From a virus, in the IMG/VR virus record IMGVR_UViG_3300033146_000946, positions 32,001-96,000 of that record: a stretch of DNA of 64,000 nucleotides, one strand, 5' to 3'. The position numbers were made by a program, and so were the translations under genes. The notes below the pieces were generated by a model. The model worked only from the letters and a program-made list of their open reading frames with translations, did no database searches and had not been told where the DNA came from. Positions 1-54,299 of the stretch are shown piece after piece. Within the stretch, counting starts at the first letter, position 1; the number at the start of each line of letters is the position of its first letter.

Positions 1-33
1 CATTCTGAATTAACCGATTTTCAAGAATCACAA

Positions 34-2382
34 ATGAAAAACTTTTTGAATATTGTAGAAGATAGTACATTAATAACTAATATTCAAAAAGCAAATACTC
101 TTGGTATACTTTATGATAAGATTATAAGTACTTCAAATAAAAATGAATATAACAATCAAATTAAAGAAAATTTATCTGATTCAAATGAGTATTTATATAA
201 TCTTATAGAAAAATCTGATGTTCCTGATAATGAAAAACAAAATGTTATAGCTGCCATAAAATCTATAAATGATACATTATATTTATCTAATGAAGAGAAA
301 CTTGGTAAACATATTGATTTATATAATTTTATAATGGAAGATATAAATGATGCAGAATATAATAAAAATATAGATGAACATGTAGATGAAACTTATAAAT
401 ATGTTAAAAAAATAATTAGAAAAGCTAATTTAAATGATAATGATAAAGACTATTTAAAAGAATCATTAAAAGATATTCATAATACCTCTAATTTAAATAA
501 TATAACTAAAGCTTATATTATGGGTAACTTATATGATGAGACTATGGATATTTCCCAGAATAATGATTATAATGATCAATTAGAAGAAAATTTAGATAAA
601 TCGACTAAATATATTAATAAATTTATTAAGAAAAATAATTTAACATTTACACAACAATTAGCTGGATTAAATACATTAGATATTATTAATTCAGATACAT
701 ATTTAAGTATTGAAGAAAAATTAAATCAACATGGAGTTATATATGATAATCTTTATAATATTGTATCCGAAAATTATTATTCTCAAGGATTATCAGCTAA
801 TTTAAAAGAATCTACTGAATTTATGACAGAATTTATTAATGATCAAGAATTAAAATTTGATCAATATGATCAAGCATTAGATACATTAAAATCAGTTAAT
901 TCAACTGAATATTTAACTGATGAAGAAAAATTAGTTCAACATGGTTATTTATATAAATATGTTAGTCAAGAAAATATAGAATATTTAACTGATGAAAGTG
1001 AAAATGAAGATACATATCCAATTGAAATTAAATCTACATTAAAAGATTCTAAAATTGATAATAAGGAAATAGTACAAGATATTATTCGAGAACAAAATGA
1101 TACTGTTCATAATAATATAATTGATAATTCACAAGAACGATTAGAACATTATAAAACTAATATAAATGAATCTTTATCTGATGATGTTAGAGATAAGAAA
1201 ATTATAGAATCAATTAATCAAGATATGAAAACATTAGAAAATACTAGAGATATTTCAACTCCTAATAACGATCTTAATAATCCTATTAAATCTGAAGTTA
1301 GTTCAAAATTAGAAGAAATTAAAACTATTGATTCTAATGCAGCAAATTATCCTTCTGAAGCAACTACTGTAAATTCAACTGAAAGTACAGCATTTAATAA
1401 AACAGAAAAACAAGCATTTGAAAATGCTAATAAAGCTGTAAAACAAAAACAACAATTAATAGAACATGCTGATAAAATAGTAAATGACATAAATGATATA
1501 ACAAATGATAAACCTAAATCTAGAAATAAATCTAATCCTTATGAAATTAATGATTTAGATGAATTAGAAATTGCAACAAAAGCAATTGATGAAAATTCAG
1601 CATATAAATTAAATACAACAGCTGAATATAAAACAGAAGAAAAAAATGCTTCTAATCTTAAAATAATTGATTATGTTGATATGGCAAATGGTGTTGACTC
1701 TGATTCTGGTAGACCTAATACTGAAAATGGTGCAGGTGCTAGTTCAGGTGGTGTTGGTGGTGTAAAACATGATAATACATATAAACATGATAAAACTTTT
1801 AGAGAATTTACAAATGTAGCTCCTACTTCATTTAAGAAAAGTGGAGTATTTTCCAAATATGCTGAAGTAGAATTAGATACAAATGCTAAAAAAGGTGAAA
1901 AATATATTGCAAAAGTAGAAGATAGTGCCGCTCTCAGAATAGCAGTAAAAGCACAAGATGTAAAATATAACTTTGGTGGTAAAGATTTAGAAAATAATAC
2001 TATAGATTGTTCAGGATTTGCTGTATATGTAAATAATCAATTAGCTATGGATCATGGTAAGGAAAGACGACCAATTCTTAAATCACATAATACTAGTGCT
2101 CAAGATTTATATAATTATTCAATAGAAACAAATAAACCTCAACCAGGAGATATGGCATTTTTATATAGTTCTAAACGTGGTAAAATTGGACATGTAGTTG
2201 TTTATATGGGTACAACTAAAGATGGTAAAGCTGTTGTTATGGATGCTAGAGGTGGTGGTAAACATAAAGTTTATACTCAGATATTAGAAGATATGCCTTC
2301 TTGGAGTAAACATTTATCAGGATGGAGAACATTAAAAGGACAAGTTAATAATACTAATATAGATCCAAAAGATTTATTATAA
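34..2382 (+). CDS. Virion-associated NlpC/P60 cell-wall peptidase with N-terminal 70-aa helical repeats (5'-truncated; frame open from base 1)
   Basis: C-terminal YNFGG..IDCSGFAVYV (Cys codon 2008-2010), QPGDMAF, GHVVVYMG (His codon 2191-2193) match the NlpC/P60 motifs. Bases 1-33 are in frame (HSELTDFQESQ) and continue the repeat. Confidence 0.85.
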   Translation: MKNFLNIVEDSTLITNIQKANTLGILYDKIISTSNKNEYNNQIKENLSDSNEYLYNLIEKSDVPDNEKQNVIAAIKSINDTLYLSNEEKLGKHIDLYNFIMEDINDAEYNKNIDEHVDETYKYVKKIIRKANLNDNDKDYLKESLKDIHNTSNLNNITKAYIMGNLYDETMDISQNNDYNDQLEENLDKSTKYINKFIKKNNLTFTQQLAGLNTLDIINSDTYLSIEEKLNQHGVIYDNLYNIVSENYYSQGLSANLKESTEFMTEFINDQELKFDQYDQALDTLKSVNSTEYLTDEEKLVQHGYLYKYVSQENIEYLTDESENEDTYPIEIKSTLKDSKIDNKEIVQDIIREQNDTVHNNIIDNSQERLEHYKTNINESLSDDVRDKKIIESINQDMKTLENTRDISTPNNDLNNPIKSEVSSKLEEIKTIDSNAANYPSEATTVNSTESTAFNKTEKQAFENANKAVKQKQQLIEHADKIVNDINDITNDKPKSRNKSNPYEINDLDELEIATKAIDENSAYKLNTTAEYKTEEKNASNLKIIDYVDMANGVDSDSGRPNTENGAGASSGGVGGVKHDNTYKHDKTFREFTNVAPTSFKKSGVFSKYAEVELDTNAKKGEKYIAKVEDSAALRIAVKAQDVKYNFGGKDLENNTIDCSGFAVYVNNQLAMDHGKERRPILKSHNTSAQDLYNYSIETNKPQPGDMAFLYSSKRGKIGHVVVYMGTTKDGKAVVMDARGGGKHKVYTQILEDMPSWSKHLSGWRTLKGQVNNTNIDPKDLL
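142..981 (+). repeat. Four degenerate 210-nt (70-aa) coding repeats
   Basis: Units start at 142 (NEYNN), 352 (AEYNK), 562 (NDYND) and 772 (NYYSQ), exactly 210 nt apart. Three of the four share YLxxEEKLxxH..(L/I)Y. A partial unit precedes them. Confidence 0.85.
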
Positions 2383-2435: not shown

Positions 2436-2738
2436 ATGGCAGTAACAAAAGAACAAATTGAAAAATGGAAAGCGGAGTTTGGTAAAATTTATAAGATAAC
2501 TCCTGTGTCAGATCTAGAAATAATCTATAAACCTTTATCTAGGAATGATTATATGGATATTATGTCAAAACAAATTGAAGGTTTGATTGAAGATCCTGAA
2601 ATTGAAACTGTTAAATTATGTATCTTAAATGATATAGATGAAAATGATCTTTATTCACGAGGTGGTATTGCTACTGTTGTGTATGAAGATATTATGAAAC
2701 GTTCTGGATTTACAATTGTAGAATCAGAAGAACTATAA
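2436..2738 (+). CDS. Tail assembly chaperone
   Basis: Small acidic protein (EQIEKWKAEFGKIY..IIYKPLSRNDY) of the phage TAC type. AGGAGG RBS. Lies upstream of tape-measure-position genes. Confidence 0.7.
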   Translation: MAVTKEQIEKWKAEFGKIYKITPVSDLEIIYKPLSRNDYMDIMSKQIEGLIEDPEIETVKLCILNDIDENDLYSRGGIATVVYEDIMKRSGFTIVESEEL

Positions 2739-2765: not shown

Positions 2766-2794
2766 AAGGGAGAGTCTTTACTCTCCCTTTCTTT
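2766..2794 (+). terminator. Intrinsic terminator
   Basis: AAGGGAGAGT-CTTT-ACTCTCCCTT 10-bp stem followed by TCTTT. Confidence 0.75.
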
Positions 2795-2968: not shown

Positions 2969-3505
2969 ATGAATTTAACAAGACAAACCAAGTTATATAA
3001 ATCTACTTTTGATGATAAAGAAGTAATATATCGAACTTTAAATATAACTGAAATCAATGTTATTAATAATATATCTAATACTTATTATAAATATGATGTA
3101 GCATATGATCTAGCAGTAATTAATAAAGATGATGAAATCAATTATTTAATTAAACAACAAATTGGAAAAGATATTATTGAATCTTCAGCTTTATCTTTAT
3201 CTGACGATATGATATTATCTTTAACTGTTGATGGATTTAGAGAATCAGTTAAAAATGATTTTACTTTAACTCTAATTCCACAAATAATGAATGTATTAAA
3301 TGTTAATTTAGAATATCTACTATCTTTAACAATTGATGATTTAATTGAATTAACTGCTTTATGTGAAATTATGACTAATAAAAAAATATTTAAAGATATA
3401 GATATGCCAAAAGAAGATGTTGCAATTAAAAATGATAATCCACAATTTTTTCCAGAAGATGGAAAATCATTACAAGATAAAATGAAAGAACTAGAAGGTT
3501 TTTAA
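2969..3505 (+). CDS. Second tail assembly chaperone-like protein (paralogue of 2436-2738)
   Basis: DDKEVIYRTLNITE resembles SDLEIIYKPLSRND. AAGGAG RBS. TAATG overlap with the next gene. Confidence 0.6.
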   Translation: MNLTRQTKLYKSTFDDKEVIYRTLNITEINVINNISNTYYKYDVAYDLAVINKDDEINYLIKQQIGKDIIESSALSLSDDMILSLTVDGFRESVKNDFTLTLIPQIMNVLNVNLEYLLSLTIDDLIELTALCEIMTNKKIFKDIDMPKEDVAIKNDNPQFFPEDGKSLQDKMKELEGF

Positions 3506-6500
3506 TGTCACACTATGATCCTTATCAGGATAATAACGATAGCTATTATAATCCGCAAAGTAATGTTAATAATAAAGAAAGTGTAGTTCATTCAATAGGC
3601 AGTGCTATTGGAGAAACTGCTAAATCTTTAGTTGGTCAATTAATTGTTCATACTGTTGTTAAATCTGTTGGAAAATTAGCAGGTCGAGGAATCGCAAATG
3701 CTCAACGTTCAAGAGCTACAATGAGATTAAAGCAGAAGAATTTATCATCTTCTCAAAGATCAATGTATCAACGATTATCAAAAGCGGAAACATTTACAGA
3801 TGTATTATCAGCTAGAAGTAAAACATTCGATAGGGTTAGAACTAACGCATGGCGACAAAAGTCAAAAAATATTTTAGAAAAACGTGAAAATGTTTATAAT
3901 AGATTAAAAACTAGAAATCCAATTGGAGCGGAAGCATATAAAGTTAAATCTGCTTTTAAAAATTCTGATACATTTATGGCTGTAGCTATGCATAATGTAG
4001 GTGAATCTATATTAGAAGGATCCATTATAGGATACGCTTACGATGCAGCTACTGGTCAATTAGGACATATGGGTGTAAGAGACGATCTATCTACTTGGAA
4101 TTTACCAGGACATGCTGTAAACTACGCTAAATATATGGTAAAAAATGCTGTTAACTTTGGAGTAATGGGAAATCTTGGTAATATTAAAAGATTTGGCCAA
4201 GCTGGTGCCGCAAATGTTGGTAAAAATTTCTTGAAACATAATAAAGGTTTTGAAGATGCAGTATTAGGATTTGCATCTAAAGTATCTAATGTTAGATATA
4301 AAGGTGCTATGAAACATGGTAGTGATACTGATTATAAAGCACAAGCATTTCAACATGAAATAAATGATAGTTTATTAAAGAAAGTAAAAGATAATGTTGG
4401 CGCAGCACTATCTACTTATACCGATACTATTGCTCCTATGATGCATGAATCATTACATAAACCATTTCAACGCAAACCTACAAAAACACCACAACCAACT
4501 GCTACTCAAAGTGCTGTCAAATTTCAAGATAAAGTTAAACATGGATTGGATCAAGTAAAAAATAGTTTTGAACATAAACGTAATGAGCGAGCAAATAGAT
4601 TATCAAAAGATGTAGATAAAGGTGGATTTGCTATTGCTGATGTTTTATCAGATATGGGTGCAAGATCTAATAATCAATCTGTATTAACTCAACATGGTAA
4701 TTCTAAACAAGCTATAGATGAAATGTTAATGAACCAAAAATCTAGTAGAGGATTTTTAGCTCAAATGTTTGGATTACAACAAACATCTTTAAAAGATACT
4801 TTAACAAAAGATAAAATAGCTGATATAGCTCATGGTATATCTAAATTTACTGATACAAAAGAAGAAATGTTAATTAGACAACTTGGTAATGTTAAAGTTG
4901 GAAATACATTTTTTAAAAAAGGTAAATTTAATGTAGATATGAATTATATGAATCCTCTAAATGTAGTAAAAAGAGGAATGGCTAATATACTTCAATCTAA
5001 TGCTAAAATGTTATATAAATTACCAATGGTTGGAAAATCATTATCATTGGGTGCTATTACTATGTCTGATACTATTCTTGGTACAGAATATAACGCTTTT
5101 TCTTTTAATAATACTGGTACTGGATTTGGATTTGTAGTAGGAACTAAAGGTGGTCCTAAACAAATAGATGATTTATTACGTGAACCTGGTATTTTAAAAC
5201 AAGGATCTAATACTAGTGGCGTTAATGTACATATGGTTAATGATAAATTATATGCTATAGATGGTGCAACTATTACTAAATTAGATTCATATAATGTAGC
5301 AATTAAAGAAACGAGTCCTGCATCTAAATCATTAAGTGAAATGAAAAAGCATGATATGGAAGAATATTTATATCAGAATGCTAAAAACACAGTACCAACA
5401 TCAAAAAGCGAAGCTATAGCAGCTTATGCTAATAATATTAAAAAACAACGAGATGGTTTAGGGTTTTTTGGAAAATTATCAGCTGCTGTATCATGGGATA
5501 AATTAAGTTCTAGTAATGCTATGCAAGGTTTAAAAGAAATCTTTAATATGAAGATTATGCCTAATGGACAAGTACATAGTGTAAAACAACAATTATATGA
5601 CCAAATGGTTGGATCATTTTATGGTAAAGATCCTATATTTAATAAACAAGAAATGATGTCTGTTGGTCGAACAATGTTAGAATCTACTGAACATCATTTA
5701 GCTAATGTTATAAATAGACCACATGTAATAAAACAATTAGCAGAACGTTCAAGTGGATTTATGAATAAAAATAATCTTGGATGGATGTGGGATGATACTG
5801 AATTTGTTCAATTATTACGAGAAGGACGAGCACCTAATGGTGTTATTGATAAAGATTTTTATAAAACATTTTTATCTGATGATGAATCTAAAGCATTATA
5901 TCATACAGTAATACAAAATCCTCGTCGAGCTAAAAAACATATAACACGAGATAGAGTTGGAGCTAGACCAGATTTAGATGCACTTACACAATTACGTACT
6001 AAATTTGCTATGAATGGTTTAGGTAAAGTCGAAGGTGTTGATAGAATGTTAAGTGGTGCAGATTTCTTACATAGACAAGGATTAATAAGTCATTCAGAAG
6101 CAACTGCTATGAAACTTCATGGTAAATTAAATACTATGTTTGCAAAATCTAAAACCTATTTTGGTGAATTAGATCCTGAAATAGTGGATTTAACAGAAAT
6201 GCAAAAATTGTTTAAAGGTAAAAAAGATGGTGTAATAATAAAACAAAATGAATTATTAGATTATGTTATGCAAGATGAAATGCGTAAACCATCTTTAGTT
6301 TATTCAAAAGCAAGATTAGCAGATACGTTATATAGAAATCCAGATGCACCTATGTTTGGATTAGCTCGCGATACAACTCAAGCGATAGGTATATCCTATA
6401 AAAGTGATTCTGATAAGAATATGGCTATGGGTTTAAAAGTATTAAATGTAGGAGCAAATAGAGTATCACATCTAGTATCTGATACATTTAATGCTGTTGG

Positions 6501-9500
6501 TATTGGTGGATTTGAATATGATAATTTCAGATATGGTACTGGTATGTCTGGTTCATTTAAATATCTTGCTAATACAGCTGGTAAAGTAGCAGCAGCAGCT
6601 TTTGCATATAAAGCTATTGATGCTGCAGTTGCATCAGCTCCAGTATTTGATCAAACTGGATTACAAGATGGTATAACAGGATTTTTAGCTGATAATGTAG
6701 CAACTACACATTTAATAGCATCTAAAGCATTAAATTTTACAGGTGTTGCAGGAGCAGGAAGGTATCTTGAAGGGTTAATGCCAGGATTTACATCATCTGC
6801 ACCAGGAGCATTGATTGGTGGTGCTCTTAGAATGGCTGGTGGACCAGGAGCTATGATTGGTGGTGCAATACATGGTGCTATTTGGAATCGAATGTTATCA
6901 GCATATATGCCAGATTTTACTAAAACATATGAACAATTACAAAAAGAATATTCAGGTGAAGAAGAAGTAGCTATTGTAGAAGGTAAAGGATGGTTATTAG
7001 GTACTACACCATTCCAAGGTAATAAAATAGTTGGTTATAAACCAAATTGGTATGTTGAAGCAAAATCAAGATGGAAAGCATCAGATACATTATATGGTTC
7101 TGAATTTAGAAAATTAATACATGAACCATTACCTGGAATAGGTGCTAATATTGGTGATATAATAGATCCATATTATATGGAACGAAAACATTTCTTCGAT
7201 AGGCCATATCCTGTTACTGGAGGATTTTTAGATGAAGTTCCAGTATTTGGTCCATTAATAGATGCTACGTTAGGAAAAATATTTAAACCTAAAAAATTAA
7301 TGCATCAGAAATTTTTAAATGGTGATTCATCAATTGAACATTCTGAAGTTACAGCTATGCCAGTTATACCAATGTCAGAACAATCAGTACATATGCGTAG
7401 TGCTTCACCAATGAAAACAACTAGTCGACATATTAGATCTAATTTTATGGGAGCATGGGTTTATCCAGGTGATCATGCTTCATCAGCACAAATGATAGCT
7501 GATGATTATATGGCAGGATTTGAAAATATGATGGGTTTAGTTGGTTTTGCTGGTGGTGTTGGTAGAACTAATTTAGTAGAACATGAACGTGTAGTTCCAA
7601 CATTAGAAACTGCTGGTAGAATGGCATCTATGACTAGAAGTTATAATGATATGGCATTGGGAGGAATAGGTACTTTATCTGAAGCAATGAGACGTTTTGT
7701 AGGTAAACCAGACCATAGAAAAGTCGGTGTTAATCCAATTCCAAATATGCTTCCAAACTTTCTACCAGGTAGATTTTTAACTGGTGATCCATATGAAAAA
7801 ATAATGAAAGGTGAATTAAGATTACCTGGTACTGCTTATGAAAGAACACATGATATTAATTATGCTATGCCAGGTCGTGCTTCAATGTTCGGTGGTAATT
7901 TAAAAGATATCGTTGCATATTTTACTGGACATAAATCACCATTATTAAAAGAAGAACATGATATATTGGAATATGGTACACATGCTCACGAAGCTATTCA
8001 AAATTGGCTTAAAGCTGAAAATATATTAATATCTGCTGAAAATTTAGTATATGATACAAGAAATAATGTGTCTGGTCATATTGATGGTGTAATTCGAGAT
8101 GGTACAGGTGGTGGTGGTAGAAGAGCTCTTGAAATAAAAACTATATCAGCTAAAGGTTTAAAGAAATTATCAGGACCAAAAAATCAACACGTTGGACAGT
8201 TAAATTTTTATCTTCATGAAATGAAGATGAAAAAAGGTACAATATTATATGTTAATAGAGATAATCCAGCTGAGTTTAAAGTATATGAAATTAATTATAA
8301 TCGAGATAGATATACAAAAGATTTACAAAAAATACATCAAGCTAGAAAAATAGCGTCTGGTATGATAGCACAATCTAAAACGGGTATATCTAAAGGTTTT
8401 AGTTATTCTTGGACAGATAGATTAAATATATTAGCTGACGTTGCGCCAGCATCAAAAGAATTCAAAGAAGCAAAGTGGATAGTTGAACAACAGATAAAAA
8501 ATGGAATGATGGATGAACGTGGAATGAACAAATATAGAAAAGCGTTAAAACATCGACAAGCTACTTTGAGAACTTATGAATTATATCCTACTAGATTTAG
8601 AGGACAAATATTATCACCTGATGCTGAATATAATAGACAAAATGAAAATTATAATATAAAAGCAGGAGCAGAATATAGTTTACCAGAAAGAATAGTTGGA
8701 GCAGTTTGGGAAGAATTTTTAAATACAAATACATTTTTAACTAATAAGTTTTTTGCATTTAAAGATCCATTAGAACATTATTCAGAATATCAAGTATACG
8801 GAAAAGAATATACACCATGGACTGATCCTTATGGTTCATTTGTAAAACCAAGAATAGATAGAGTATTAGGATCAACTGATCCTTTTAAAGGAGCAATAGC
8901 AGGTTCTATTGATGGAGCATATTTATTTGGTGGTAGTCCAATGGCAGCAGTTGGAGCATTTGTAGGTGCTGCTGTTGGTGGTGTTAATGGAATCATGAAA
9001 AGACAACAAAGATGGCTACCTGGAAATATTAAAACTGAAAGACAAATTAATGATTATTTTGATACGTTAGAATATTATAAAAATGAAAGAATGGCAACTT
9101 TGAGTTATGGTATGGAATATGATAGATATAAAAATGCAGCTAATGCTACATTCCATAGTTTAATACAAAATGAAAGTACGGATTATACTAATATATATAG
9201 ATCAGCTTATACGTCAGAAAAACCATATCTATCTGCCTGGTTAAATGAAACTAATCCTGAACGACAAGAAGAAATTTTAAAAATTGTTCCTGAACGATTA
9301 GGAAATGTGTTAGTTAGTCATTGGCAAAAAGAAGGATCAAAAGTTAATACTGAAGATCATATTGATAAAATGTCAGCAGGTTTATTACAAAAACATAATC
9401 CAGAATATGATATGAGAATGTTAGATCCAATGTTACGAACAGAAGATATTAAATTAAAAGCTATTAATAATGCTGGATTAAATGCTCATGATTTTGGATT

Positions 9501-9786
9501 AGGTTGGGCTCCACAATTATTAAGAGCACAAGATGCGATGGATAGAATGCCAGATCCAAATATTAATCAAATTAATTTTAATGAAAATAATGCAGATATG
9601 ATGGATCCAGGTACAGTAAAAGGAGCAATAATGAATATGTTACATTCGATGGGATTAAAAGGTAGAGTTACAGTATTTATAAATAATCATGTAGATGGTG
9701 GATCAAATAAAGCAACTATAACATTACAGCATAATAGAGTGCAAGAAATTCGTGATGCTGTTGATTTTAGAGAGAGGTATATGTAA
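3505..9786 (+). CDS. Giant tape-measure/ejection-type virion protein with embedded PD-(D/E)XK (Cas4/RecB-like) nuclease domain
   Basis: Follows the chaperones. Has Gly/Ala-rich hydrophobic segments (GALIGG..GAMIGGAIHG; AAVGAFVGAAVGG). Nuclease motifs GTHAH, GHIDG, LEIKT and QLNFY at about 7975-8211. Confidence 0.75.
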   Translation: MSHYDPYQDNNDSYYNPQSNVNNKESVVHSIGSAIGETAKSLVGQLIVHTVVKSVGKLAGRGIANAQRSRATMRLKQKNLSSSQRSMYQRLSKAETFTDVLSARSKTFDRVRTNAWRQKSKNILEKRENVYNRLKTRNPIGAEAYKVKSAFKNSDTFMAVAMHNVGESILEGSIIGYAYDAATGQLGHMGVRDDLSTWNLPGHAVNYAKYMVKNAVNFGVMGNLGNIKRFGQAGAANVGKNFLKHNKGFEDAVLGFASKVSNVRYKGAMKHGSDTDYKAQAFQHEINDSLLKKVKDNVGAALSTYTDTIAPMMHESLHKPFQRKPTKTPQPTATQSAVKFQDKVKHGLDQVKNSFEHKRNERANRLSKDVDKGGFAIADVLSDMGARSNNQSVLTQHGNSKQAIDEMLMNQKSSRGFLAQMFGLQQTSLKDTLTKDKIADIAHGISKFTDTKEEMLIRQLGNVKVGNTFFKKGKFNVDMNYMNPLNVVKRGMANILQSNAKMLYKLPMVGKSLSLGAITMSDTILGTEYNAFSFNNTGTGFGFVVGTKGGPKQIDDLLREPGILKQGSNTSGVNVHMVNDKLYAIDGATITKLDSYNVAIKETSPASKSLSEMKKHDMEEYLYQNAKNTVPTSKSEAIAAYANNIKKQRDGLGFFGKLSAAVSWDKLSSSNAMQGLKEIFNMKIMPNGQVHSVKQQLYDQMVGSFYGKDPIFNKQEMMSVGRTMLESTEHHLANVINRPHVIKQLAERSSGFMNKNNLGWMWDDTEFVQLLREGRAPNGVIDKDFYKTFLSDDESKALYHTVIQNPRRAKKHITRDRVGARPDLDALTQLRTKFAMNGLGKVEGVDRMLSGADFLHRQGLISHSEATAMKLHGKLNTMFAKSKTYFGELDPEIVDLTEMQKLFKGKKDGVIIKQNELLDYVMQDEMRKPSLVYSKARLADTLYRNPDAPMFGLARDTTQAIGISYKSDSDKNMAMGLKVLNVGANRVSHLVSDTFNAVGIGGFEYDNFRYGTGMSGSFKYLANTAGKVAAAAFAYKAIDAAVASAPVFDQTGLQDGITGFLADNVATTHLIASKALNFTGVAGAGRYLEGLMPGFTSSAPGALIGGALRMAGGPGAMIGGAIHGAIWNRMLSAYMPDFTKTYEQLQKEYSGEEEVAIVEGKGWLLGTTPFQGNKIVGYKPNWYVEAKSRWKASDTLYGSEFRKLIHEPLPGIGANIGDIIDPYYMERKHFFDRPYPVTGGFLDEVPVFGPLIDATLGKIFKPKKLMHQKFLNGDSSIEHSEVTAMPVIPMSEQSVHMRSASPMKTTSRHIRSNFMGAWVYPGDHASSAQMIADDYMAGFENMMGLVGFAGGVGRTNLVEHERVVPTLETAGRMASMTRSYNDMALGGIGTLSEAMRRFVGKPDHRKVGVNPIPNMLPNFLPGRFLTGDPYEKIMKGELRLPGTAYERTHDINYAMPGRASMFGGNLKDIVAYFTGHKSPLLKEEHDILEYGTHAHEAIQNWLKAENILISAENLVYDTRNNVSGHIDGVIRDGTGGGGRRALEIKTISAKGLKKLSGPKNQHVGQLNFYLHEMKMKKGTILYVNRDNPAEFKVYEINYNRDRYTKDLQKIHQARKIASGMIAQSKTGISKGFSYSWTDRLNILADVAPASKEFKEAKWIVEQQIKNGMMDERGMNKYRKALKHRQATLRTYELYPTRFRGQILSPDAEYNRQNENYNIKAGAEYSLPERIVGAVWEEFLNTNTFLTNKFFAFKDPLEHYSEYQVYGKEYTPWTDPYGSFVKPRIDRVLGSTDPFKGAIAGSIDGAYLFGGSPMAAVGAFVGAAVGGVNGIMKRQQRWLPGNIKTERQINDYFDTLEYYKNERMATLSYGMEYDRYKNAANATFHSLIQNESTDYTNIYRSAYTSEKPYLSAWLNETNPERQEEILKIVPERLGNVLVSHWQKEGSKVNTEDHIDKMSAGLLQKHNPEYDMRMLDPMLRTEDIKLKAINNAGLNAHDFGLGWAPQLLRAQDAMDRMPDPNINQINFNENNADMMDPGTVKGAIMNMLHSMGLKGRVTVFINNHVDGGSNKATITLQHNRVQEIRDAVDFRERYM

Positions 9787-12700
9787 TGCCAATAACTGAA
9801 ATTTTAGGTGAAGAAATTGAAAATGATAATGATAGAGTAAACTGGTTTGGTAGAGTAATGGTTGGTGGTATGTCTGTTTTAGGACTTGTTGCTATTGCTA
9901 ATAAGATTGGTGGTCCTACAGGTAAAGCTATAAAATTATCAGTTGGTGATCAATTAGAAGAAGAAGTAATAGATGCTGTTAATAAATATGGAAGACAAGC
10001 TGATAAATTAAAATCACCAAGTAGTTTAAAACATAAATTACCAATTAATGGAAAATTAGAAGTAGTTGGAAAATTACCATCAGAACAAGCAATTTCTAAA
10101 TTTGAACGTGTAGTAAATTCTCAAGATAAAATAAACAAAATGATGGAGACACCAACATCATTATATAATAAAATACATGAACTTGAGCGTTCTATTTCTA
10201 CTGTTATTAATGGTGTTGAAAATGGTGATCCTATGATGAAACAGATTAACGCATTACATGGAATAGTTTCAGCTAAAGTTAGGACAAAAGATGCTAAATC
10301 TGATGCTAATAATTATTTATTAATGGCAACCAAAATAAATGCAATGAGAGATTATAGTACTACTGATGTTAAAGGTGAATTAGCACAATATTTAGATGAA
10401 GATATCTGGTATGATAATTTCTTAACTGAAATGAAACCATCTGATATGATTAAATGGAATCAAAATAATGAAACTTTAATAAAAAGTGATACATCATATG
10501 CTAAAAAATATTATAAACAATTACAAAATTTAGAAAAAGAAATTTTAGCTAATAAAATTGCTAGTTCTGCTAATAGTAATAAAGCATTAGAGCTAACACA
10601 TAATAAATTATATGTAAAAGATGCTTTTATGCCTGTTGGTGATTTATTAAATGATGCAGCAGGTTATGTAATAAATGTTACTAATAAATCTATCGAATTA
10701 TTTTCATCTGATTTTAGTAATAATAAAATGAGTGTTGGAGAAATAAAACAAGTAATCGATAAATCTATATCTAAAAACGTTGGATTAAAATCACAATACG
10801 GATCAGAATTAAGTGATATAGCTCATTTATTAGATCAATTTAAAACTATGAGTAATGGTAAAATTACTAATGTTAAAATGACTTATAAAACCACAGAACA
10901 AAGAGGTGTTGAAAAAGCATATGTTGTAATTAATATAGATAGAAAATATGGAAATAATAATACTAGATCATTTTCTATGAATATACCATTAGTTGATAAA
11001 TTTAATATTGTACCAGATATAACTAATACATCACATTTTGGATATGGTGTTGCAGGTATAATAGAATCATTACCAGGAACAAATAAACCAGCTACAGCAA
11101 TAGATATATCTACTTATTATATGAGAACTGTTAAAGATATGTTAACTCAATCTATAATGAGTGAGGTATTATTTACTGATGAAGAATCATTTAATGATGT
11201 ACAAAAAAAATTAAGAAGACCATTATTAGCAATTCAAGATCAATTAAGTGCATTAAATGGTGAAGCTAGAGATATTTTTGCTACAGGAATGTATATACCA
11301 AAAACGCATTTAGATTTAATTGCTGATAAAACAGGTAGTAAAAAAAGACAATTAGCTGATGGTGCTAAAACAATAATAAATATGTTTAATGATAGTAAAA
11401 GAAATACTAATAATGATGTATCTATTGTTTTAGACTTAGAAACAATTCAATTATTAGGAAATGGTTCAGGAAGATATATGTCTGTAAGAAATACTACTTC
11501 AATTTGGTCTGTAGGTTTTTCTATTTTTAAAGGTAATGAATTAATAGATGGTGATCAGATTTCTTCTATGCATGCTTTAAAAGAGCATGATTTATTACGA
11601 GCATATGAAGTTGATAAAGTTGATAAAGGATATATAGCTAGGATGATTGATGAAAATCCTAATATCCGTAAATTTGCTAGATTTGCACAGAAAACAGTTG
11701 GCGGTTCAACTGGTGATGATTCAGTAAGTTTAGCTATAGCATTAAAAAAACATATAGAAATGGTACTAGATGAATCAAACGGATCATTATCTAAAGTAAC
11801 AACAATGCCAGGTATGGGAAATTTTTCAAGTTCAGTTGAATTTGCTCAATCTTTTGTTAAAATGTTGAAAGCTAAAATACGAGATTTACAAGATACTTTA
11901 CAACCAGGAGCAAAGATCACACTTGAAACTGCAAATGGTACTGATTTCGATATAAGATTATTAGAAACATTAACTGGTGATATGGGTTCTATAAGAGATA
12001 TGGTTGAATTTAAAGATATAACTAATGTAAGTAGAACTATGAAATTTGGTAAAAAAGGTATGTTAGGTGATCAGTTAATGCATATCGTTAACCAGTTAGC
12101 ATGGGATCAAGGATATGATAAAGAACATTTTAATGTAGAAGCTAATCCATTAGAAGCATTAAAACAATTACAAAAGAATGGATTAATGAAAACTAATAAA
12201 AATGGTGGTGATATATTAAAATTTGTTGGCGGTAAAATAAAAGGTAATATGGGTTTACATAATTCAGCATTATTAGATACTGTAATGACAAAAGCTGCAG
12301 TTATATTAGCTGAGAATGTAATTGCTAAAGATACTAGTCATGTAGATAAAGCATATGAAATTTTAAATTTATTAGAAAAATATCAAAGAAAAGATTATGA
12401 AGCAACTATTGCTGATTATATGGAATCATCTTTAGGAGTAATAAATGGTAAACAAGTAACTAAATCTGGTATTAGTATGCAACATCGTGTTGATAATTAT
12501 TATACACATTTTAACGTAGCTGATGTTATGCCATTATTAGCAAATAATCCAGTATCTAAACAAGCAAATCAATATTTAAGACATGGTTGGTTTCAAAAAA
12601 ATGTTAAAGCTGCATATTGGCGATATGGAAAAATGATTACATCTCCAATAGAAGAAGTAGCTACAGATTTAGCATATAGAACTACAGGATTTGATAAAAA

Positions 12701-15700
12701 TAGATTTGCTAATAAAGTTATATTAAATACAGCATATACAATTGGTGGATATGGTATGCAATCTGGATATAGTGCTATACCTAAATTTATAGATGATGAA
12801 TTTGATCAAATGTTATATAATCAAAAACGAGTTCAATTTAATTTTGCTGATACTGATTTTCCAGATGCATCTATGTCTAATACTATTAGAGAAGTATATG
12901 ATAAAGCTATGGTTAGAGCTCGTAAAATGATGAGTGATAAAGGATTAGGTCCAGTTAAAAGTAAGCATAAAATATCCAAAAGTGTATTAGAAGAAGCATT
13001 TAGAATAGAATTAGGAAATATACAAAATAAAGAATCTTTGATATTAGATCCAGAAAACCCAATACATCAAAATATTATGTTTGGTGATGGTAAATTAAAT
13101 ATTAAACAAAATACTCCAGGAAAATTAGTAGGTATTGAATTAGGTGGTGATATTAATAATGATAAACCAGCTTCAATGTTATTATTATTTGATTATAAAT
13201 CTTCTTTAAATTTACAGATAGATCATTTACCAGATAATAAATCAGTTGTTACTAAATTACAACATGTAGATCAAGAAGTACTTAGAACTATGGGTAGAAA
13301 ATATACACATGGATTAATTGAATCACAAGTAGATATGCGTACAATAGAAAAAGGATATACTGGAGAATTACAAAGAAAAGCATTATTAAAAATAATAGGA
13401 CATGTTAATAAAATAGGTCATATTGGGTCATCAGATGCATCTAAGAGAGTATGGACTGATTCAGAAAAATTTGCATCTGATAAAATAATGAAAAAAGTAA
13501 TATCATTGTTTAAAGAAAAAGCTGCAACAGATGGTATGCATGTTGGATCTATTGATGAAGAAAATGGTTTTAAATCATTTATATTTGGTGCATTAAAACC
13601 AGGAACAGTAGATGTTAAAGAACAAATGAATATGTTATCTACTATTAAAATGTCGGATATTATGGATATATTTGGTGAAGCAGGTGGTGATCTCATACAT
13701 GATTATAAAAGTTTAAAAGAATATTATGGTTTATTTAGTAATGATGGTATAATTGAAACTGCTCATAATATCGATTCAAAATTAGTAGCTAAAGGCTTTT
13801 CAGAAAAAGGTACAAAAGAAGGAGATTTATTAGAACAAATGTTAAATATGGATGATACTATAAAAGAAAATAAAGCATTAATAAATCCATTTCAAGCAGC
13901 TGCTAATAAATATAATAGAAAGCATGGTGATAGTGCATTACAAAAAAAATTACAAGGATACATTGATGCTAATGATTTACAATCTGCTGATAATTTAATT
14001 AAGAAATTAAAAATTGGAAAATTATTTCAAGCAGTAGGTGATATGAGTGCAGTTAATAGAAATATTATGGCTGGTAAAACTGGAGATGAAAGGTTTGATA
14101 AATTAATGGGTATTGTTGTTCCTACTATTCATCACTTTAGTGATTCTCAATCTATGAAACAAAAACAAGTTAATAAAACTATTAAATTTCGAGCTAATTA
14201 TTTTGATACAATTTTTCATGAAAATTATTTACCAGAAAGAGTAAAACAAGTATTAGCATCAAGTCAAGGTTGGAAAGCTGACAAAGCAGGTTTAGATTTA
14301 GTTAAAACATCTCGTGCAGTTATAGACATGTTTAAAAATAATAATCTTAGTAAATTAATGACTAATTATAGTTTAAATCAACAACAAATGTTAGATATCA
14401 TTGGTAATCCACTAACTAATAAACAAATAGATAGAGCATTAGAAAGATTAAGTTTAGCTGATGGTAAAAGTTCAAAGAGAAAAGCTGCTATAATTAGTGA
14501 AGTAATAGATAGTATTAAAAAAACAGGAACAACTATATCATTAGAAGAAGAAGAAGAAATAAGATCTAGAAGTATTAATTATTTTAAAGATAAATTGATT
14601 GCAACTAAAAACAGACCTTCTTCTTTATCAGCTACCGAAGCATTACATGTAATATCTTTAAGTGAAGATCAAAATGCTAAAGTAGTTGGTTTAAAATTTT
14701 ATGAATATAAAGAACTTGATAAAGATACAGGAAAATTAGTATCTAAAGTTATATCAAAAGAAACTAGAGCTAAATTAATTAAAAAAGGTATTAGTAAAGA
14801 TCAATTCAAATCATGGGGTGGACAAATTAGATTTGATTTAGAAGATATGATATCTAGATTGAATGAAAAAGAATCTGATCCATTTAATCTACGTCAATTT
14901 ATTGATCATTTTTCACATCTTAAAAATACACCTGGTCGTGCTGATAATAGAATCTTTAATGTCAAAGAAGTTAATGGTAGAAAAATAATTGAAATGAACG
15001 CATTAGTTATGCCAATGTTTAGTGATATTAGAAATGTATTCAATCAAATTGGTGATGTTGAAGGTTATGGTGTTGCTACAAAAGAATTTAAATTAATGCA
15101 AGAAGTCGCTAATGGTTTAAAAGATTATGCTAATTCCTTTATTGATGGTAAAGGTAATAATTCTATGAATAATAGAACTGGTGACGACTTAGCTTTTAAC
15201 TATTTCCAAATGTTAGGTGGAATTATGAATTTTGGAAAAGATTCACAATTATTTGATGCTGTTAAAAAATTCCATTTAGTAGGTAGTAGACATACATATG
15301 GTGTAAGTGATCAACATGTATTATTAGCACAATATACCTTAAAAGGAATAGATGGTAAAAGTACTGGTTCAAAACAAAGAATGTTAGATTTTTTCAAAAA
15401 AAATAATATGGATGCTTCACAACAAAGTGCATTTATGGATCAGATAAGAAGTGTAGCTTTATCTGATGGACATACAGCATTAGTAAATGCTGAAGATTTT
15501 TTTGGTGATAATATAAAAGTAAATACAGGTAATGGTAAAAGTATGACTTTTGGTCAAATGTTATCTGATGCAAAAGCTAATGATAAACATTTATATAATG
15601 AATTATTAAAAATTCAAAATGGTAGAGCAACTATGCCAGGTTTCACTGGTAGATATCCTATCCCATCAGCTGGAGAACTTGGATTATCTATGGTTAATAT

Positions 15701-17291
15701 TTTAGGTCTTAGTAGAGAAGTGATGGATTTTTTAGGTATGAGTACTGATATGACATATTTTAATTCTGTTATAGCTGAAGCTCGTAAAGCTGATACTGAT
15801 GGTGATGAAACTGAGTTAATGCAATTAGGATATAGAACAATCGAACATTTAAATGAAATGAGAGCAGCAACAAAAGAATCACATGCTAGAACTGTAGGTA
15901 GTCATGGACTTCAATATCTTATTAATGAATATAATAGAAGTGGTGCATTAATAGGTAAGGAAATGAAAGGTGGTGTAGAATATTATAAAGTTGGTAAATT
16001 AGCACCTAATGGTTCAATGATTGAAGAATTAGTTACAAAAGATGAATATTTTAATAAATTTGATTCAGGTATATCTAAAAATTTTAAAAAAATTCTTAGT
16101 CAAGACTGGATAGAAGGAACTAATATACATAATATAGCAAATGGTGTAGAACGTCATTTAGCAACAGGTGAAATTGGTACAGCTGCTCAATCATTAATTG
16201 GTTTAATTTCTAATACGATGAGTGAAAGAGTAAAAGATTTACATCGTTTAAATAAAATACTTCCTGATAATGTTCCAACTGATATAAACTTTTTGGATTC
16301 AATTCAATCAATAAAATTTGGTATGGCTAATATGCATCAAACTGCAATTGCTATGGGTAAACATAATACGTTTGAAAAAGCAATAAATTTAGCACATGCT
16401 ATTGGTTTCTGGGAATCAAAAGTTAATAATAAACAAGCTTCACGAGAACAAGTTCAAGCAGCTGAAAAAGCATGGATGCATAATTTTTATGATGATTGGG
16501 ATACAAAAAAATTAAATCCATATTGGGAAAAAAATGACGAAACAAGAGCATTTGTTCAAAAACAACAAGACTTATTTAATACTTTTAAAACTGCTATGCC
16601 ATTTATAGATCAAGTTTATAAAAAAGATCCACAAATAGGAAGATACTTAAAAAATGAAAGCGATTTATCTAGTGGTAAAATGGGAACAGATATTACTGCT
16701 GCATTATGGAATGAATCTATGGATCATGGTATTTATGATGATGCTATATCTCATATTAATTCATCAACTCGAGAAGCAACAGCAGAATTAATTCAACATG
16801 TAATAGATAAACAAAGTGGTGATTTTAAATATGATAATGGACCTACAAAACGAAGTAAAGCTTTTAATCATTTTTATACTAATAATAATATACATGTTAA
16901 AAATGCAATGATGCATGGTGGTAAATTTGCAGCTTTTGGTATGTTAGCAGTTGCAGCATTAAATATGTTTAAACCTATGGCTGGTACTGGAATTGATGCA
17001 CCAGGTGTACATAATAATTTTACTGCTAGTGAATTACAATTAGATAGAAGAATAGCTATAGATCAAGTTGATGCATCTTTTAGTAAAGAAGCATTTGCTT
17101 ATATGAATGATCAAGATTCAACTGCTAGAGAAAAAAAATCATTATATGGTGCTACACAATTAGCAATATATGATAATTTAATTAGACCAGAACCTACTCA
17201 TAAACAATTTAGAAGTAATCTTAATATACAACAGATAAATAGAATGACTTATATTGGTCCATTTGGTAATTCTAATTTTGATAGTAGGTAA
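9786..17291 (+). CDS. Giant virion protein: DEDDh (DnaQ-like) exonuclease fused to putative single-chain two-barrel RNA polymerase
   Basis: Exonuclease motifs LDLET (11430), NGTDFD (11934) and HNSALLD (12258). Beta'-like GRYP (15648) followed by ARKADTDGDE (15780-15809). Weaker beta-like motifs at 12519-14200. Confidence 0.72.
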   Translation: MPITEILGEEIENDNDRVNWFGRVMVGGMSVLGLVAIANKIGGPTGKAIKLSVGDQLEEEVIDAVNKYGRQADKLKSPSSLKHKLPINGKLEVVGKLPSEQAISKFERVVNSQDKINKMMETPTSLYNKIHELERSISTVINGVENGDPMMKQINALHGIVSAKVRTKDAKSDANNYLLMATKINAMRDYSTTDVKGELAQYLDEDIWYDNFLTEMKPSDMIKWNQNNETLIKSDTSYAKKYYKQLQNLEKEILANKIASSANSNKALELTHNKLYVKDAFMPVGDLLNDAAGYVINVTNKSIELFSSDFSNNKMSVGEIKQVIDKSISKNVGLKSQYGSELSDIAHLLDQFKTMSNGKITNVKMTYKTTEQRGVEKAYVVINIDRKYGNNNTRSFSMNIPLVDKFNIVPDITNTSHFGYGVAGIIESLPGTNKPATAIDISTYYMRTVKDMLTQSIMSEVLFTDEESFNDVQKKLRRPLLAIQDQLSALNGEARDIFATGMYIPKTHLDLIADKTGSKKRQLADGAKTIINMFNDSKRNTNNDVSIVLDLETIQLLGNGSGRYMSVRNTTSIWSVGFSIFKGNELIDGDQISSMHALKEHDLLRAYEVDKVDKGYIARMIDENPNIRKFARFAQKTVGGSTGDDSVSLAIALKKHIEMVLDESNGSLSKVTTMPGMGNFSSSVEFAQSFVKMLKAKIRDLQDTLQPGAKITLETANGTDFDIRLLETLTGDMGSIRDMVEFKDITNVSRTMKFGKKGMLGDQLMHIVNQLAWDQGYDKEHFNVEANPLEALKQLQKNGLMKTNKNGGDILKFVGGKIKGNMGLHNSALLDTVMTKAAVILAENVIAKDTSHVDKAYEILNLLEKYQRKDYEATIADYMESSLGVINGKQVTKSGISMQHRVDNYYTHFNVADVMPLLANNPVSKQANQYLRHGWFQKNVKAAYWRYGKMITSPIEEVATDLAYRTTGFDKNRFANKVILNTAYTIGGYGMQSGYSAIPKFIDDEFDQMLYNQKRVQFNFADTDFPDASMSNTIREVYDKAMVRARKMMSDKGLGPVKSKHKISKSVLEEAFRIELGNIQNKESLILDPENPIHQNIMFGDGKLNIKQNTPGKLVGIELGGDINNDKPASMLLLFDYKSSLNLQIDHLPDNKSVVTKLQHVDQEVLRTMGRKYTHGLIESQVDMRTIEKGYTGELQRKALLKIIGHVNKIGHIGSSDASKRVWTDSEKFASDKIMKKVISLFKEKAATDGMHVGSIDEENGFKSFIFGALKPGTVDVKEQMNMLSTIKMSDIMDIFGEAGGDLIHDYKSLKEYYGLFSNDGIIETAHNIDSKLVAKGFSEKGTKEGDLLEQMLNMDDTIKENKALINPFQAAANKYNRKHGDSALQKKLQGYIDANDLQSADNLIKKLKIGKLFQAVGDMSAVNRNIMAGKTGDERFDKLMGIVVPTIHHFSDSQSMKQKQVNKTIKFRANYFDTIFHENYLPERVKQVLASSQGWKADKAGLDLVKTSRAVIDMFKNNNLSKLMTNYSLNQQQMLDIIGNPLTNKQIDRALERLSLADGKSSKRKAAIISEVIDSIKKTGTTISLEEEEEIRSRSINYFKDKLIATKNRPSSLSATEALHVISLSEDQNAKVVGLKFYEYKELDKDTGKLVSKVISKETRAKLIKKGISKDQFKSWGGQIRFDLEDMISRLNEKESDPFNLRQFIDHFSHLKNTPGRADNRIFNVKEVNGRKIIEMNALVMPMFSDIRNVFNQIGDVEGYGVATKEFKLMQEVANGLKDYANSFIDGKGNNSMNNRTGDDLAFNYFQMLGGIMNFGKDSQLFDAVKKFHLVGSRHTYGVSDQHVLLAQYTLKGIDGKSTGSKQRMLDFFKKNNMDASQQSAFMDQIRSVALSDGHTALVNAEDFFGDNIKVNTGNGKSMTFGQMLSDAKANDKHLYNELLKIQNGRATMPGFTGRYPIPSAGELGLSMVNILGLSREVMDFLGMSTDMTYFNSVIAEARKADTDGDETELMQLGYRTIEHLNEMRAATKESHARTVGSHGLQYLINEYNRSGALIGKEMKGGVEYYKVGKLAPNGSMIEELVTKDEYFNKFDSGISKNFKKILSQDWIEGTNIHNIANGVERHLATGEIGTAAQSLIGLISNTMSERVKDLHRLNKILPDNVPTDINFLDSIQSIKFGMANMHQTAIAMGKHNTFEKAINLAHAIGFWESKVNNKQASREQVQAAEKAWMHNFYDDWDTKKLNPYWEKNDETRAFVQKQQDLFNTFKTAMPFIDQVYKKDPQIGRYLKNESDLSSGKMGTDITAALWNESMDHGIYDDAISHINSSTREATAELIQHVIDKQSGDFKYDNGPTKRSKAFNHFYTNNNIHVKNAMMHGGKFAAFGMLAVAALNMFKPMAGTGIDAPGVHNNFTASELQLDRRIAIDQVDASFSKEAFAYMNDQDSTAREKKSLYGATQLAIYDNLIRPEPTHKQFRSNLNIQQINRMTYIGPFGNSNFDSR

Positions 17292-17332: not shown

Positions 17333-17506
17333 ATGAGTATAATAGAAACTAATATCGTAGTAGATATAAATGACCCAAATGTAACACCACAAATAATAGC
17401 TCAATTAGAATCAATATTATCAAGTATAAATGGTAAACCCGTGGAAGTTAATGTAATAAATATGGATGATCCCATATCTATGAGTCCATTAAATTATAAA
17501 GTATAA
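17333..17506 (+). CDS. 57-aa hypothetical protein (not in ORF track)
   Basis: MSIIETNIVVDINDPNVTPQ...LNYKV*. AAGGA RBS at 17321. Fills the gap between two giant genes. Confidence 0.7.
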   Translation: MSIIETNIVVDINDPNVTPQIIAQLESILSSINGKPVEVNVINMDDPISMSPLNYKV

Positions 17507-17517
17507 AGGTAAAATAT

Positions 17518-54254: not shown

Positions 54255-54299
54255 TTATTTTAAAAAATAAATTGAATTAAATATATAAGGAGATTGCAA

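Follow-up and report, generated by a model that had tools for sequence, protein, structure and literature searches.

A predicted polymerase core fused to an exonuclease, next to a nuclease-bearing giant, in the tape-measure region of an uncultured myovirus related to 0305phi8-36

Introduction

What is encoded by two giant genes that lie in the tail module of a contractile-tailed phage, where a tape measure gene would be expected, and what might their products do at infection? The question is raised by a stretch of 64,000 nucleotides (hereafter the window), which corresponds to bases 32001-96000 of a single viral contig of 147,061 bp and 25% G+C (IMG/VR record IMGVR_UViG_3300033146_000946). Two successive open reading frames (ORFs) of the window, here called giant 1 and giant 2, encode proteins of 2093 and 2501 amino acids (aa). 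The contig comes from a myovirus whose tail module can be lined up by BLAST, gene by gene, with those of Bacillus phage 0305phi8-36 and Acinetobacter phage ME3, and the lineage is one of deep-branching, mostly uncultured myoviruses related to these two phages. A first-pass annotation, made from the sequence, had placed in the two giants a PD-(D/E)XK nuclease, a DEDDh exonuclease and a DxDGD two-barrel RNA polymerase (RNAP) among membrane-like segments, had proposed that they are delivered by the tail, and had cited Thermus phage P23-45 as a precedent. The precedent is real: P23-45 gp96 is a tape-measure-fused virion RNAP that transcribes the pre-early genes, and its description in 2024, for one group of Thermus siphoviruses, was presented by its authors as a previously unsuspected association (PMC10770324).

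In this work we have used sequence comparison, family alignments and structural modelling to decipher the roles of both giants. Our results show that giant 2 is a fusion of an N-terminal anchor, a DEDDh exonuclease, a beta-prime-type core with an intact DxDxD site, a C-terminal hydrophobic segment and a conserved tail piece. We propose, at a probability of roughly 0.55, that giants 1 and 2 are virion proteins with enzyme cargo that are ejected through the tail, the polymerase transcribing the entering DNA and the nucleases processing ends.

Results

A word-indexed search with giant 2 returned three relatives only, and searches of the PDB with the single sequence or with a four-sequence profile reached neither an RNAP nor an exonuclease. 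The four-sequence profile gave a sub-threshold match to the helical barrel of the P22 portal protein (E 5e-4), which was set aside as a helix-composition match. When a profile of residues 1690-2340 was run against 1.84 billion representative proteins, 36 matches were obtained, about 30 of them full-length proteins of 2267-2501 aa that match at the same relative position. Conservation was read from a 30-sequence alignment of this family (13-31% identity). Its few invariant columns include D550, E552, D722, D744, H825 and D831 in the exonuclease region and G1193, P1958, D2003, D2005, D2007, Q2185 and K2192 in the polymerase region, and K1189, R1956 and H2193 are nearly invariant. Since no positions are more constrained in this deeply diverged family, the motifs are not a chance occurrence in one sequence. 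Surveyed for co-occurrence, the DEDDh residues and the DxDxD site were found together in all of the full-length relatives (30/30).

The polymerase region was modelled as residues 1100-2290, with a mean predicted local distance difference test score (pLDDT) of 71 that rises to 85-95 around R-x-P...DxDxD. This pattern occurs within the whole genome in giant 2 only, and its spacing resembles that of RAP...NADFDGD in E. coli beta-prime. Foldseek against the PDB gave 226 matches at E<=1e-3 (best E 1.6e-6); the top 50 listed are all bacterial RNAP complexes (50/50), at a probability of 1.00 in every case but one, and the chain matched is D/J or its equivalent, which we take from standard naming to be the beta-prime subunit. 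A second structure search, independent of Foldseek and covering 48,161 representative chains, placed RNAP largest subunits at ranks 1-13, among them the split pieces of beta-prime from phages AR9 and phiKZ, and has P74 gp62, QDE-1 and P23-45 gp96 among ranks 14-19. Model residues 418-980 align to residues ~20-650 of RNAP largest subunits, a stretch in which both the clamp core and the active-site barrel presumably lie; within it, generic double-psi barrels (CDC48-N, VAT-N and designed double-psi beta-barrels, DPBBs) map to model residues 733-945. An ESM Atlas shape search had Rpb1 domains in every match shown, and two of its alignments, to clusters with Rpb1_3 and Rpb1_5 domains, extend to model residues ~1144-1162. 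There, a long helix (model residues 1022-1059) carries the conserved IGxxTNxxxxR and is followed by Q2185...K2192-H2193; the helix is a candidate bridge helix, and the trigger loop may begin at the motif. No listed match falls mainly within model residues 1-418, a low-confidence part. We regard the beta-prime-type core fold of giant 2 as confirmed at the level of the model, and infer polymerase activity from it.

Of the two-barrel enzyme that had been annotated, the beta-prime-type barrel therefore stands, by its fold and its invariant triad, but for the second, beta-like barrel there is no match among those listed. A language-model search with giant 2 residues 960-1520 returned nothing, and PF00562 has no match in the genome; this Pfam result carries no weight, because PF00623 also misses the confirmed beta-prime part. 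Upstream of the core, the conserved basic motifs K1189-G-Y-x-G-x2-K1196 and K1467-x-R1469 (within residues 1185-1196 and 1467-1472) are candidates for residues of a beta-type barrel, judging from their conservation.

The exonuclease region carries the DEDDh residue set, with D550/E552 as ExoI, D722 as ExoII and H825/D831 as ExoIII; the ExoIII spacing is H-x5-D in giant 2 and the canonical H-x4-D in several relatives. AlphaFold2, run on residues 470-960 with the family alignment, gave a mean pLDDT of 82 and a predicted template modelling score (pTM) of 0.78. Nearly all of the Foldseek top 50 for this model are DEDD-family exonucleases, at individually weak E-values, and its best structural matches include Pol III epsilon and the exonuclease domains of B-family polymerases. 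In the model, the first strand (76-85) carries ExoI, a helix (249-261) carries ExoII, and ExoIII opens a further helix (359-379); these positions agree with those expected from the known DnaQ fold. The DEDDh exonuclease fold is in our view confirmed by this model, as annotated, and the activity is predicted.

The third enzyme lies in giant 1, for which a word-indexed search found 52 relatives. A PHROGs profile matches residues 1483-1616 (phrog_1706, E 1.5e-17), a second profile also matches (phrog_1990, E 1.1e-9), and the nuclease motifs D1527 (HIDG), E1543-x-K1545 (LEIKT) and Q1565-x3-Y (QLNFY) are intact, which bears out the PD-(D/E)XK assignment. A weak alignment to the Cas4 structure 4ic1 spans the D, E-x-K and Q-x3-Y motifs. 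The four-Cys Fe-S cluster of Cas4 proper is absent, with zero Cys in residues 1458-1633 and in the whole of giant 1, and from its sequence we class the predicted nuclease as Cas4-like, not Cas4. All three domains thus either model or score as the folds for which they had been named. Alignments to many distant relatives skip from ~1457 to 1634 with no break in the subject coordinates, so that residues ~1458-1633 are an insertion into an older scaffold. In ME3 gp035 the motifs that flank the insertion site are ~15 residues apart, and the nuclease is missing; gp145 of 0305phi8-36 has the insertion, with VDIKT and QQLNFY, and the nuclease motifs are also kept in two divergent metagenomic relatives (L009 and L010). 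A recent origin of the giant 1 nuclease by copying of a free-standing Cas4-like gene of the same contig (52224-53243) was considered and rejected, there being no BLAST similarity between them.

In 14 intein-free sequences that share 34-52% identity the length of giant 1 is tightly kept, at 2042-2098 aa (sd 13). In other homologues, inteins (PF14890, PF14528, PF05203 and PF13403) break the core at no fewer than five sites, that is, at least at ~1165, 1228, 1392, 1431 and 1445. Intein insertion sites mark functionally critical regions, and by this general biology the core of giant 1 is marked as probably critical for function. A language-model search with residues 1100-1480 gave only unnamed viral clusters, all below the reliability line.

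Where, then, do the giants lie in the tail module? They had been described as two TAATG-coupled giants in the place of one tape measure gene. Lengths and coupling are as described, with TAATG at the junctions of a 178-aa ORF with giant 1 (3501-3507) and of giant 1 with giant 2 (9784-9788). The slot also holds, by homology to the 0305phi8-36 module, but the number does not, for there are four giants in a row, of 1691, 2093, 2501 and 2559 aa. The first of them (window 1-2382, genome 29307-34382) has an NlpC/P60 peptidase at its C-terminus and an N-terminus similar to 0305phi8-36 gp142 (BLAST E 2e-15); by BLAST, a 225-aa protein is similar to the tube protein gp140 (E 2e-27) and to ME3 gp030 (E 8e-31), and a 341-aa protein to the tube paralogue gp141 (E 3e-30). 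Pfam and NCBIfam gave no match in giants 1, 2 or 3. In 0305phi8-36 the order is chaperonins gp143/144, gp145 (1930 aa), gp146 (2537 aa) and hub gp147. Hardies et al. 2007 assigned orf146 as the tape measure, mainly on a length correlation, with the chaperonin genes one gene removed from it (PMC2147016). By this synteny giant 2 is at the annotated tape-measure slot and giant 1 between the slot and the chaperonins. According to their annotation, gp145 and gp146 have both been identified in virions by mass spectrometry (NC_009760, EF583821), and from the position of gp146 giant 2 is probably a virion protein as well.

The module is kept at every locus that could be read, that is, in L003, L009, L010 and a contig of another relative (P0050), in the order lysin-bearing gp142-like protein, ~100-aa ORF, ~180-aa ORF, giant 1, giant 2, 57-61-aa ORF, giant 3, ORFs of ~270 and ~170 aa, and Baseplate_J. 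Within it, the lysin domain of the gp142-like protein swaps between NlpC/P60 and SLT, with an SLT lytic transglycosylase in L009. In the polymerase region, giant 2 of L009 and L010 shares 13-15% identity with the protein of the window, whereas the C-terminal half of their giant 1 shares 44-48% and its nuclease motifs are almost unchanged, from which it follows that the nuclease scaffold evolves much slower and that the two giants travel together. Outside the family of about 30 members the second giant is a mosaic.

Both giants are devoid of Cys (0/4,594 residues). About 22 would be expected from the structural block minus the giants (~0.48% Cys); the background is 0.70% in all contig ORFs and 1.13% in the minus-strand non-structural ones, and giant 3 has two. 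Relatives of giant 2 have 0-4 Cys, with none in 18/29, intein-free relatives of giant 1 have 0-1, and 0305phi8-36 gp146 (2537 aa) and ME3 gp036 (1603 aa) have none. As a matter of general knowledge, such depletion would be expected of proteins that cross a narrow channel unfolded and act outside the cytoplasm. The membrane-like segments that had been annotated are also present (Table 1), and giant 2 and ME3 gp036 alike have hydrophobic segments at both ends. The best-conserved part of the giant 2 family follows the C-terminal segment (ASFSKEAFAY...GPFG).

Apart from giant 2, no further RNAP-like gene was found on the contig with Pfam models and a motif scan, the contig being ~64% complete (CheckV). 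A 222-aa ORF (54294-54962) was considered as a second RNAP and rejected: its PF00623 match is below the cut-off, and its neighbours encode an HNH endonuclease and a primase-helicase. PF00940, the T7-like RNAP model, has no match on the contig, and the control genomes gave none either. Just past the end of the window, a 273-aa ORF encodes a sigma-70-family protein (Sigma70_r2 at genome 96434-96646 on the minus strand; E 5.9e-13, which passes the Pfam cut-off). A sigma factor and no other RNAP gene fit a virion enzyme that starts transcription, followed by host RNAP with the phage sigma factor.

The coordinates of these and of the remaining features are collected in Table 1. The terminator-like hairpin (the scan found three sites against 0.1 expected in shuffles) suggests a separate transcription unit that begins with the 178-aa gene and includes the giants. 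At the place of the 178-aa ORF, L003, L009 and the P0050 contig have an ORF of comparable length, and ORFs of 57-61 aa occupy the gap between giants 2 and 3 in L003, L009, L010 and the P0050 contig. Giant 3 has a hydrophobic segment at residues 1101-1151. A prohead protease-like gene and the genes for the capsid protein and a 958-aa sheath lie upstream, and a gp25-like sheath initiator and a Baseplate_J gene downstream. The contig of the P0050 relative, which carries the same module, is 230 kb long; given this length and the ~64% completeness of our record, the complete genome is probably jumbo-sized.

Table 1. Coordinates of the features discussed in the text
Feature	Position	Strand	Remarks
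100-aa homologue of 0305phi8-36 'tail chaperonin' gp143 (C-terminal part)	2436-2738	+	BLASTP E 1.9e-8
Intrinsic-terminator-like hairpin, 10-pair stem then T run	2766-2789	+	between the 100-aa and 178-aa genes
178-aa ORF	2969-3505	+	position of gp144/ME3 gp034; TAATG-coupled to giant 1; no family detected
Giant 1, 2093 aa	3505-9786	+	no Cys; homologue of 0305phi8-36 gp145 and ME3 gp035
Gly/Ala-rich (43%) hydrophobic stretch of giant 1	6700-6879	+	residues ~1066-1125
Most widely conserved core of giant 1	6922-7875	+	residues ~1140-1457
Intein-interrupted core region	~6997-7850 equivalent		in relatives P0052, P0055-P0058, P0061, P0063-P0065, P0067, P0070
Cas4-like PD-(D/E)XK insertion of giant 1	7876-8403	+	residues ~1458-1633; hidden Markov model match 1483-1616
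Glycine-zipper-like hydrophobic segment of giant 1	8920-8997	+	residues 1806-1831
Giant 2, 2501 aa	9786-17291	+	no Cys; slot annotated tape measure in 0305phi8-36
N-terminal hydrophobic segment of giant 2	9843-9911	+	residues 20-42; conserved GGM...KIGGP block
Predicted DEDDh (DnaQ-like) 3'-5' exonuclease domain of giant 2	11400-12374	+	residues ~539-863; with helical insertions
Beta-prime/Rpb1-like RNAP core of giant 2 (modelled)	14334-16568	+	residues ~1517-2261; clamp-core-like connector, catalytic barrel, conserved helix
Catalytic double-psi beta-barrel (DPBB-A) of giant 2	15279-15917	+	residues ~1832-2044, including R1956-x-P1958
P22 portal C-terminal helical-barrel match	~15306-15476		giant 2 residues ~1841-1897; weak (E 5e-4)
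Metal-binding triad D2003-T-D2005-G-D2007	15792-15806	+	invariant in 30 sequences
C-terminal hydrophobic segment of giant 2	16926-16982	+	residues 2381-2399
57-aa ORF between giants 2 and 3	17334-17507	+	no family detected
Giant 3, 2559 aa	17518-25197	+	homologue of baseplate hub gp147/ME3 gp037 (E 6e-15 / 3e-12)
Free-standing Cas4-like nuclease gene	52224-53243	-	phrog_1706 E 4e-13
HNH endonuclease	53532-54254		adjoins the free-standing Cas4-like gene
DnaG-DnaB primase-helicase	55089-57518		near the free-standing Cas4-like gene

Discussion

In the reading that we favour, the two Cys-free giants would leave the virion via the tail, in an extended form, at infection, and would be inserted into the envelope by way of the hydrophobic segments that they carry. 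The polymerase module would then transcribe the first genes of the entering DNA, as P23-45 gp96 does, and the phage sigma factor would later redirect the host RNAP. The nucleases may process nucleic-acid ends at the entry site, the DEDDh domain trimming or proofreading 3' ends and the PD-(D/E)XK domain processing DNA ends; their substrates are the weakest part of this proposal. The roles suggested in the first-pass annotation, namely end resection for circularisation with Sak, transcription-driven genome entry or attack on host nucleic acids, gained no specific support here and stay hypothetical.

Several points weigh against it. Among the structural matches listed there is no beta/Rpb2-type chain and no beta-like second barrel was recognised, and a beta-prime core alone cannot polymerise; active two-barrel enzymes all need a second, beta-type barrel. 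The presence of giant 2 in virions is argued only from its position, because it has no sequence-detectable homologue in cultured phages: tblastn of three pieces of giant 2 against 50,697 phage records gave no match. In the models, giant 2 forms globular alpha/beta domains over residues 470-2290, unlike a classical tape measure with its extended helices. Moreover, with about a third of the genome beyond the contig another RNAP could lie on the missing part, and the sigma factor shows use of the host RNAP, so that a virion RNAP is not strictly required.

How does this arrangement compare with that of the cultured relatives? In 0305phi8-36 the order of tube, tube paralogue, gp142, chaperonins, two giants and hub is the same, and gp145 is a true homologue of giant 1 with the same PD-(D/E)XK insertion. 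In contrast, giant 2 has no detectable sequence similarity to gp146 (BLASTP, and hhalign of the family profiles against the single sequence); gp146 lacks DxDxD and has DEDDh-like motifs by eye only, and 0305phi8-36 encodes its RNAP separately from the tail module, in the QDE-1-like gene orf99 (PMC2147016). The motifs seen by eye in gp146 (L004, 21948-29558) are YLDIETTG near residue 1222 and HLARAD near 1685; should they be genuine, an exonuclease would be part of the annotated tape measure in a cultured jumbo phage.

Phage ME3 (NC_041884) has the same module, and its gp036 starts on the last base of gp035, with a one-base overlap. Besides its terminal hydrophobic segments and lack of Cys, gp036 has SREP...GGDHDQD. 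It differs from giant 2 in its length of 1603 aa and in having neither an ExoI motif nor a recognisable DEDDh domain, just as gp035 differs from giant 1 in lacking the nuclease insertion. In BFVD, an 802-residue entry, fragment 2, which we take to be the C-terminal half of ME3 gp036, matches our RNAP model (E 4.9e-5), while hhalign of the giant 2 family profiles against the gp036 sequence gave nothing; gp036 is annotated as a hypothetical protein. An uncultured siphovirus supplies the best BFVD match to the model, a protein labelled 'minor tail protein' (E 2e-6). Sequence comparison thus does not support homology between giant 2 and gp146 or ME3 gp036, and the probable link to ME3 is one of structure and motifs. 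A survey of 224 jumbo phages (2021) reported two-barrel RNAPs in group 1 and, from group 3, in 0305phi8-36 and c-st only, and places ME3 in group 2.2 with no RNAP listed (PMC7824862). The 0305phi8-36 entry of that survey, ABS83659.1, is by accession numbering not gp146, and we take it to be orf99.

The closest functional parallel is P23-45. Like gp96, the polymerase of giant 2 sits in a protein of the tape-measure slot, here by synteny and homology to 0305phi8-36. The two systems differ in that P23-45 is a siphovirus and our phage a contractile-tailed myovirus; the polymerase is N-terminal in gp96 but in the C-terminal third of giant 2, where it is fused to a DEDDh exonuclease and lies beside a nuclease-bearing neighbour, and no metallopeptidase domain was detected in giant 2. 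Moreover, enzymes of the gp96 type are clamp-less and flat, whereas giant 2 has a clamp-like connector and is nearer to multisubunit beta-prime than to gp96; gp96 and gp64 are not its closest structural relatives. We propose that the polymerase of giant 2 may work like P23-45 gp96 without being a member of the gp96 family. In the accessible parts of the supplements to the P23-45 paper there is no mention of ME3 or 0305phi8-36 (PMC10770324).

The best structural matches to giant 2 are RNAP largest subunits, namely beta-prime, Rpb1, vaccinia Rpo147 and the non-virion pieces of phiKZ and AR9. Cellular clamp cores have zinc sites. The polymerase module of giant 2, having no Cys, has no such sites; it also differs from multisubunit enzymes in that neither a partner beta gene nor a beta-like region was recognised, and in being embedded in a 2501-aa tail-module protein. 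Among other phage enzymes, N4 gp50 is a T7-like single-subunit polymerase. Giant 2 would share with it, and with gp66 of phi14:2, which is crAss-like, a polymerase domain within a giant virion protein delivered with the DNA (PMC10770324); gp66 is not named among the listed structural matches to giant 2.

Four other explanations of the enzymes deserve attention. They could be injected weapons against the host or rival elements, in which case the nucleases would degrade DNA, RNA or defence nucleic acids and the polymerase would be an accessory or a decoy. The strong purifying selection on two different nucleases, the lineage-variable insertion of the giant 1 nuclease (in gp145 but not in ME3 gp035), which is typical of conflict modules, and the separate free-standing Cas4-like gene of the genome would all suit such a role. 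We nevertheless consider it unlikely, as it leaves unexplained the conserved intact DxDxD of every relative, and as little of the host chromosome would be within reach of nucleases held by a membrane-inserted giant.

It is also rather doubtful that the polymerase core and the DEDDh domain form a proofreading or end-repair polymerase, devoted to DNA synthesis and repair or to RNA copying, for gap filling or at genome ends, and not an early transcriptase. The fusion of exonuclease and polymerase in each of the full-length relatives, the fact that DEDDh enzymes are the classical proofreaders of DNA polymerases, with Pol III epsilon and B-family exonuclease domains among our best matches, and a two-barrel superfamily that includes archaeal PolD and the dual-activity QDE-1 (PMC10770324, PMC9508822) speak for it. 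However, the core with its presumed clamp matches best the largest subunits of DNA-dependent RNAPs, with no PolD-titled entry listed, and the two activities can exist apart, since ME3 gp036 has the polymerase signature alone and gp146 the exonuclease-like motifs alone.

A similar degree of doubt attaches to the possibility that the slot is misleading and that the giants are capsid-internal, like the ejection proteins of N4, crAss-like or T7-like phages, or tail scaffolds that act in assembly only. Giant 2 is mostly globular in the models and, if folded, would be too bulky for the lumen of the tail tube; the tape-measure role of orf146 rests mainly on length correlation (PMC2147016); and N4, crAss-like and phiKZ-like phages have virion RNAPs that are tied to large proteins or packaged in the virion (PMC10770324, PMC7824862). 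Yet in every relative examined the chaperonin homologue immediately precedes the genes and the hub immediately follows them, the lengths of giant 1 and giant 2 stay within the narrow ranges given above in spite of 13-15% identity in the most divergent pairs, and the terminal hydrophobic segments and lack of Cys fit passage through a channel. Finally, it is very improbable that the beta-prime-like module is a structural relic without catalysis: no beta-like barrel was found and no Pfam RNAP model scores, but the aspartates, R-x-P, IGxxTNxxxxR and Q...KH show little or no variation across 30 sequences, even at 13% identity, which would be difficult to account for if the module had no function.

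Returning to the tail-ejected virion enzymes that we favour, a more speculative version of this proposal, improbable as it stands, is that giant 2 is a self-proofreading polymerase delivered by the tail. The DEDDh domain would edit or trim the 3' end of the product, the beta-like part would be divergent beyond recognition or supplied by a partner virion protein such as giant 1, and together with the membrane-anchored Cas4-like nuclease this would make a machine at the entry site that processes and transcribes or copies the genome end while pulling it in. To our knowledge, exonuclease editing of the 3' end coupled to a two-barrel RNAP is not known for any system.

What would these proteins mean for the phages that carry them? 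A limited literature search turned up no description of an RNAP in the tail module of this lineage, of a DEDDh-two-barrel polymerase fusion, or of the three enzymes together, in line with the first-pass annotation, which knew of no such case. Our results suggest that delivery of a polymerase through the tail is found in a second, independent lineage of phages, the same strategy having arisen independently in contractile-tailed phages. Its breadth is that of some 30 divergent metagenomic genomes, with cultured ME3 joining them at the level of structure and motifs, and its polymerase is nearer to cellular beta-prime than to gp96, always fused to an exonuclease and always beside a nuclease-bearing giant. 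The conserved absence of Cys may serve as a sequence signature of ejected phage proteins. If confirmed, the giants would provide a minimal Cys-free beta-prime-type polymerase for evolutionary and structural study, a second system in which to ask how large enzymes cross the tail tube and refold, and functions for giant genes that are called 'hypothetical' or 'tape measure' in jumbo phages like 0305phi8-36; the tape-measure slot would then be a broader platform for enzyme delivery.

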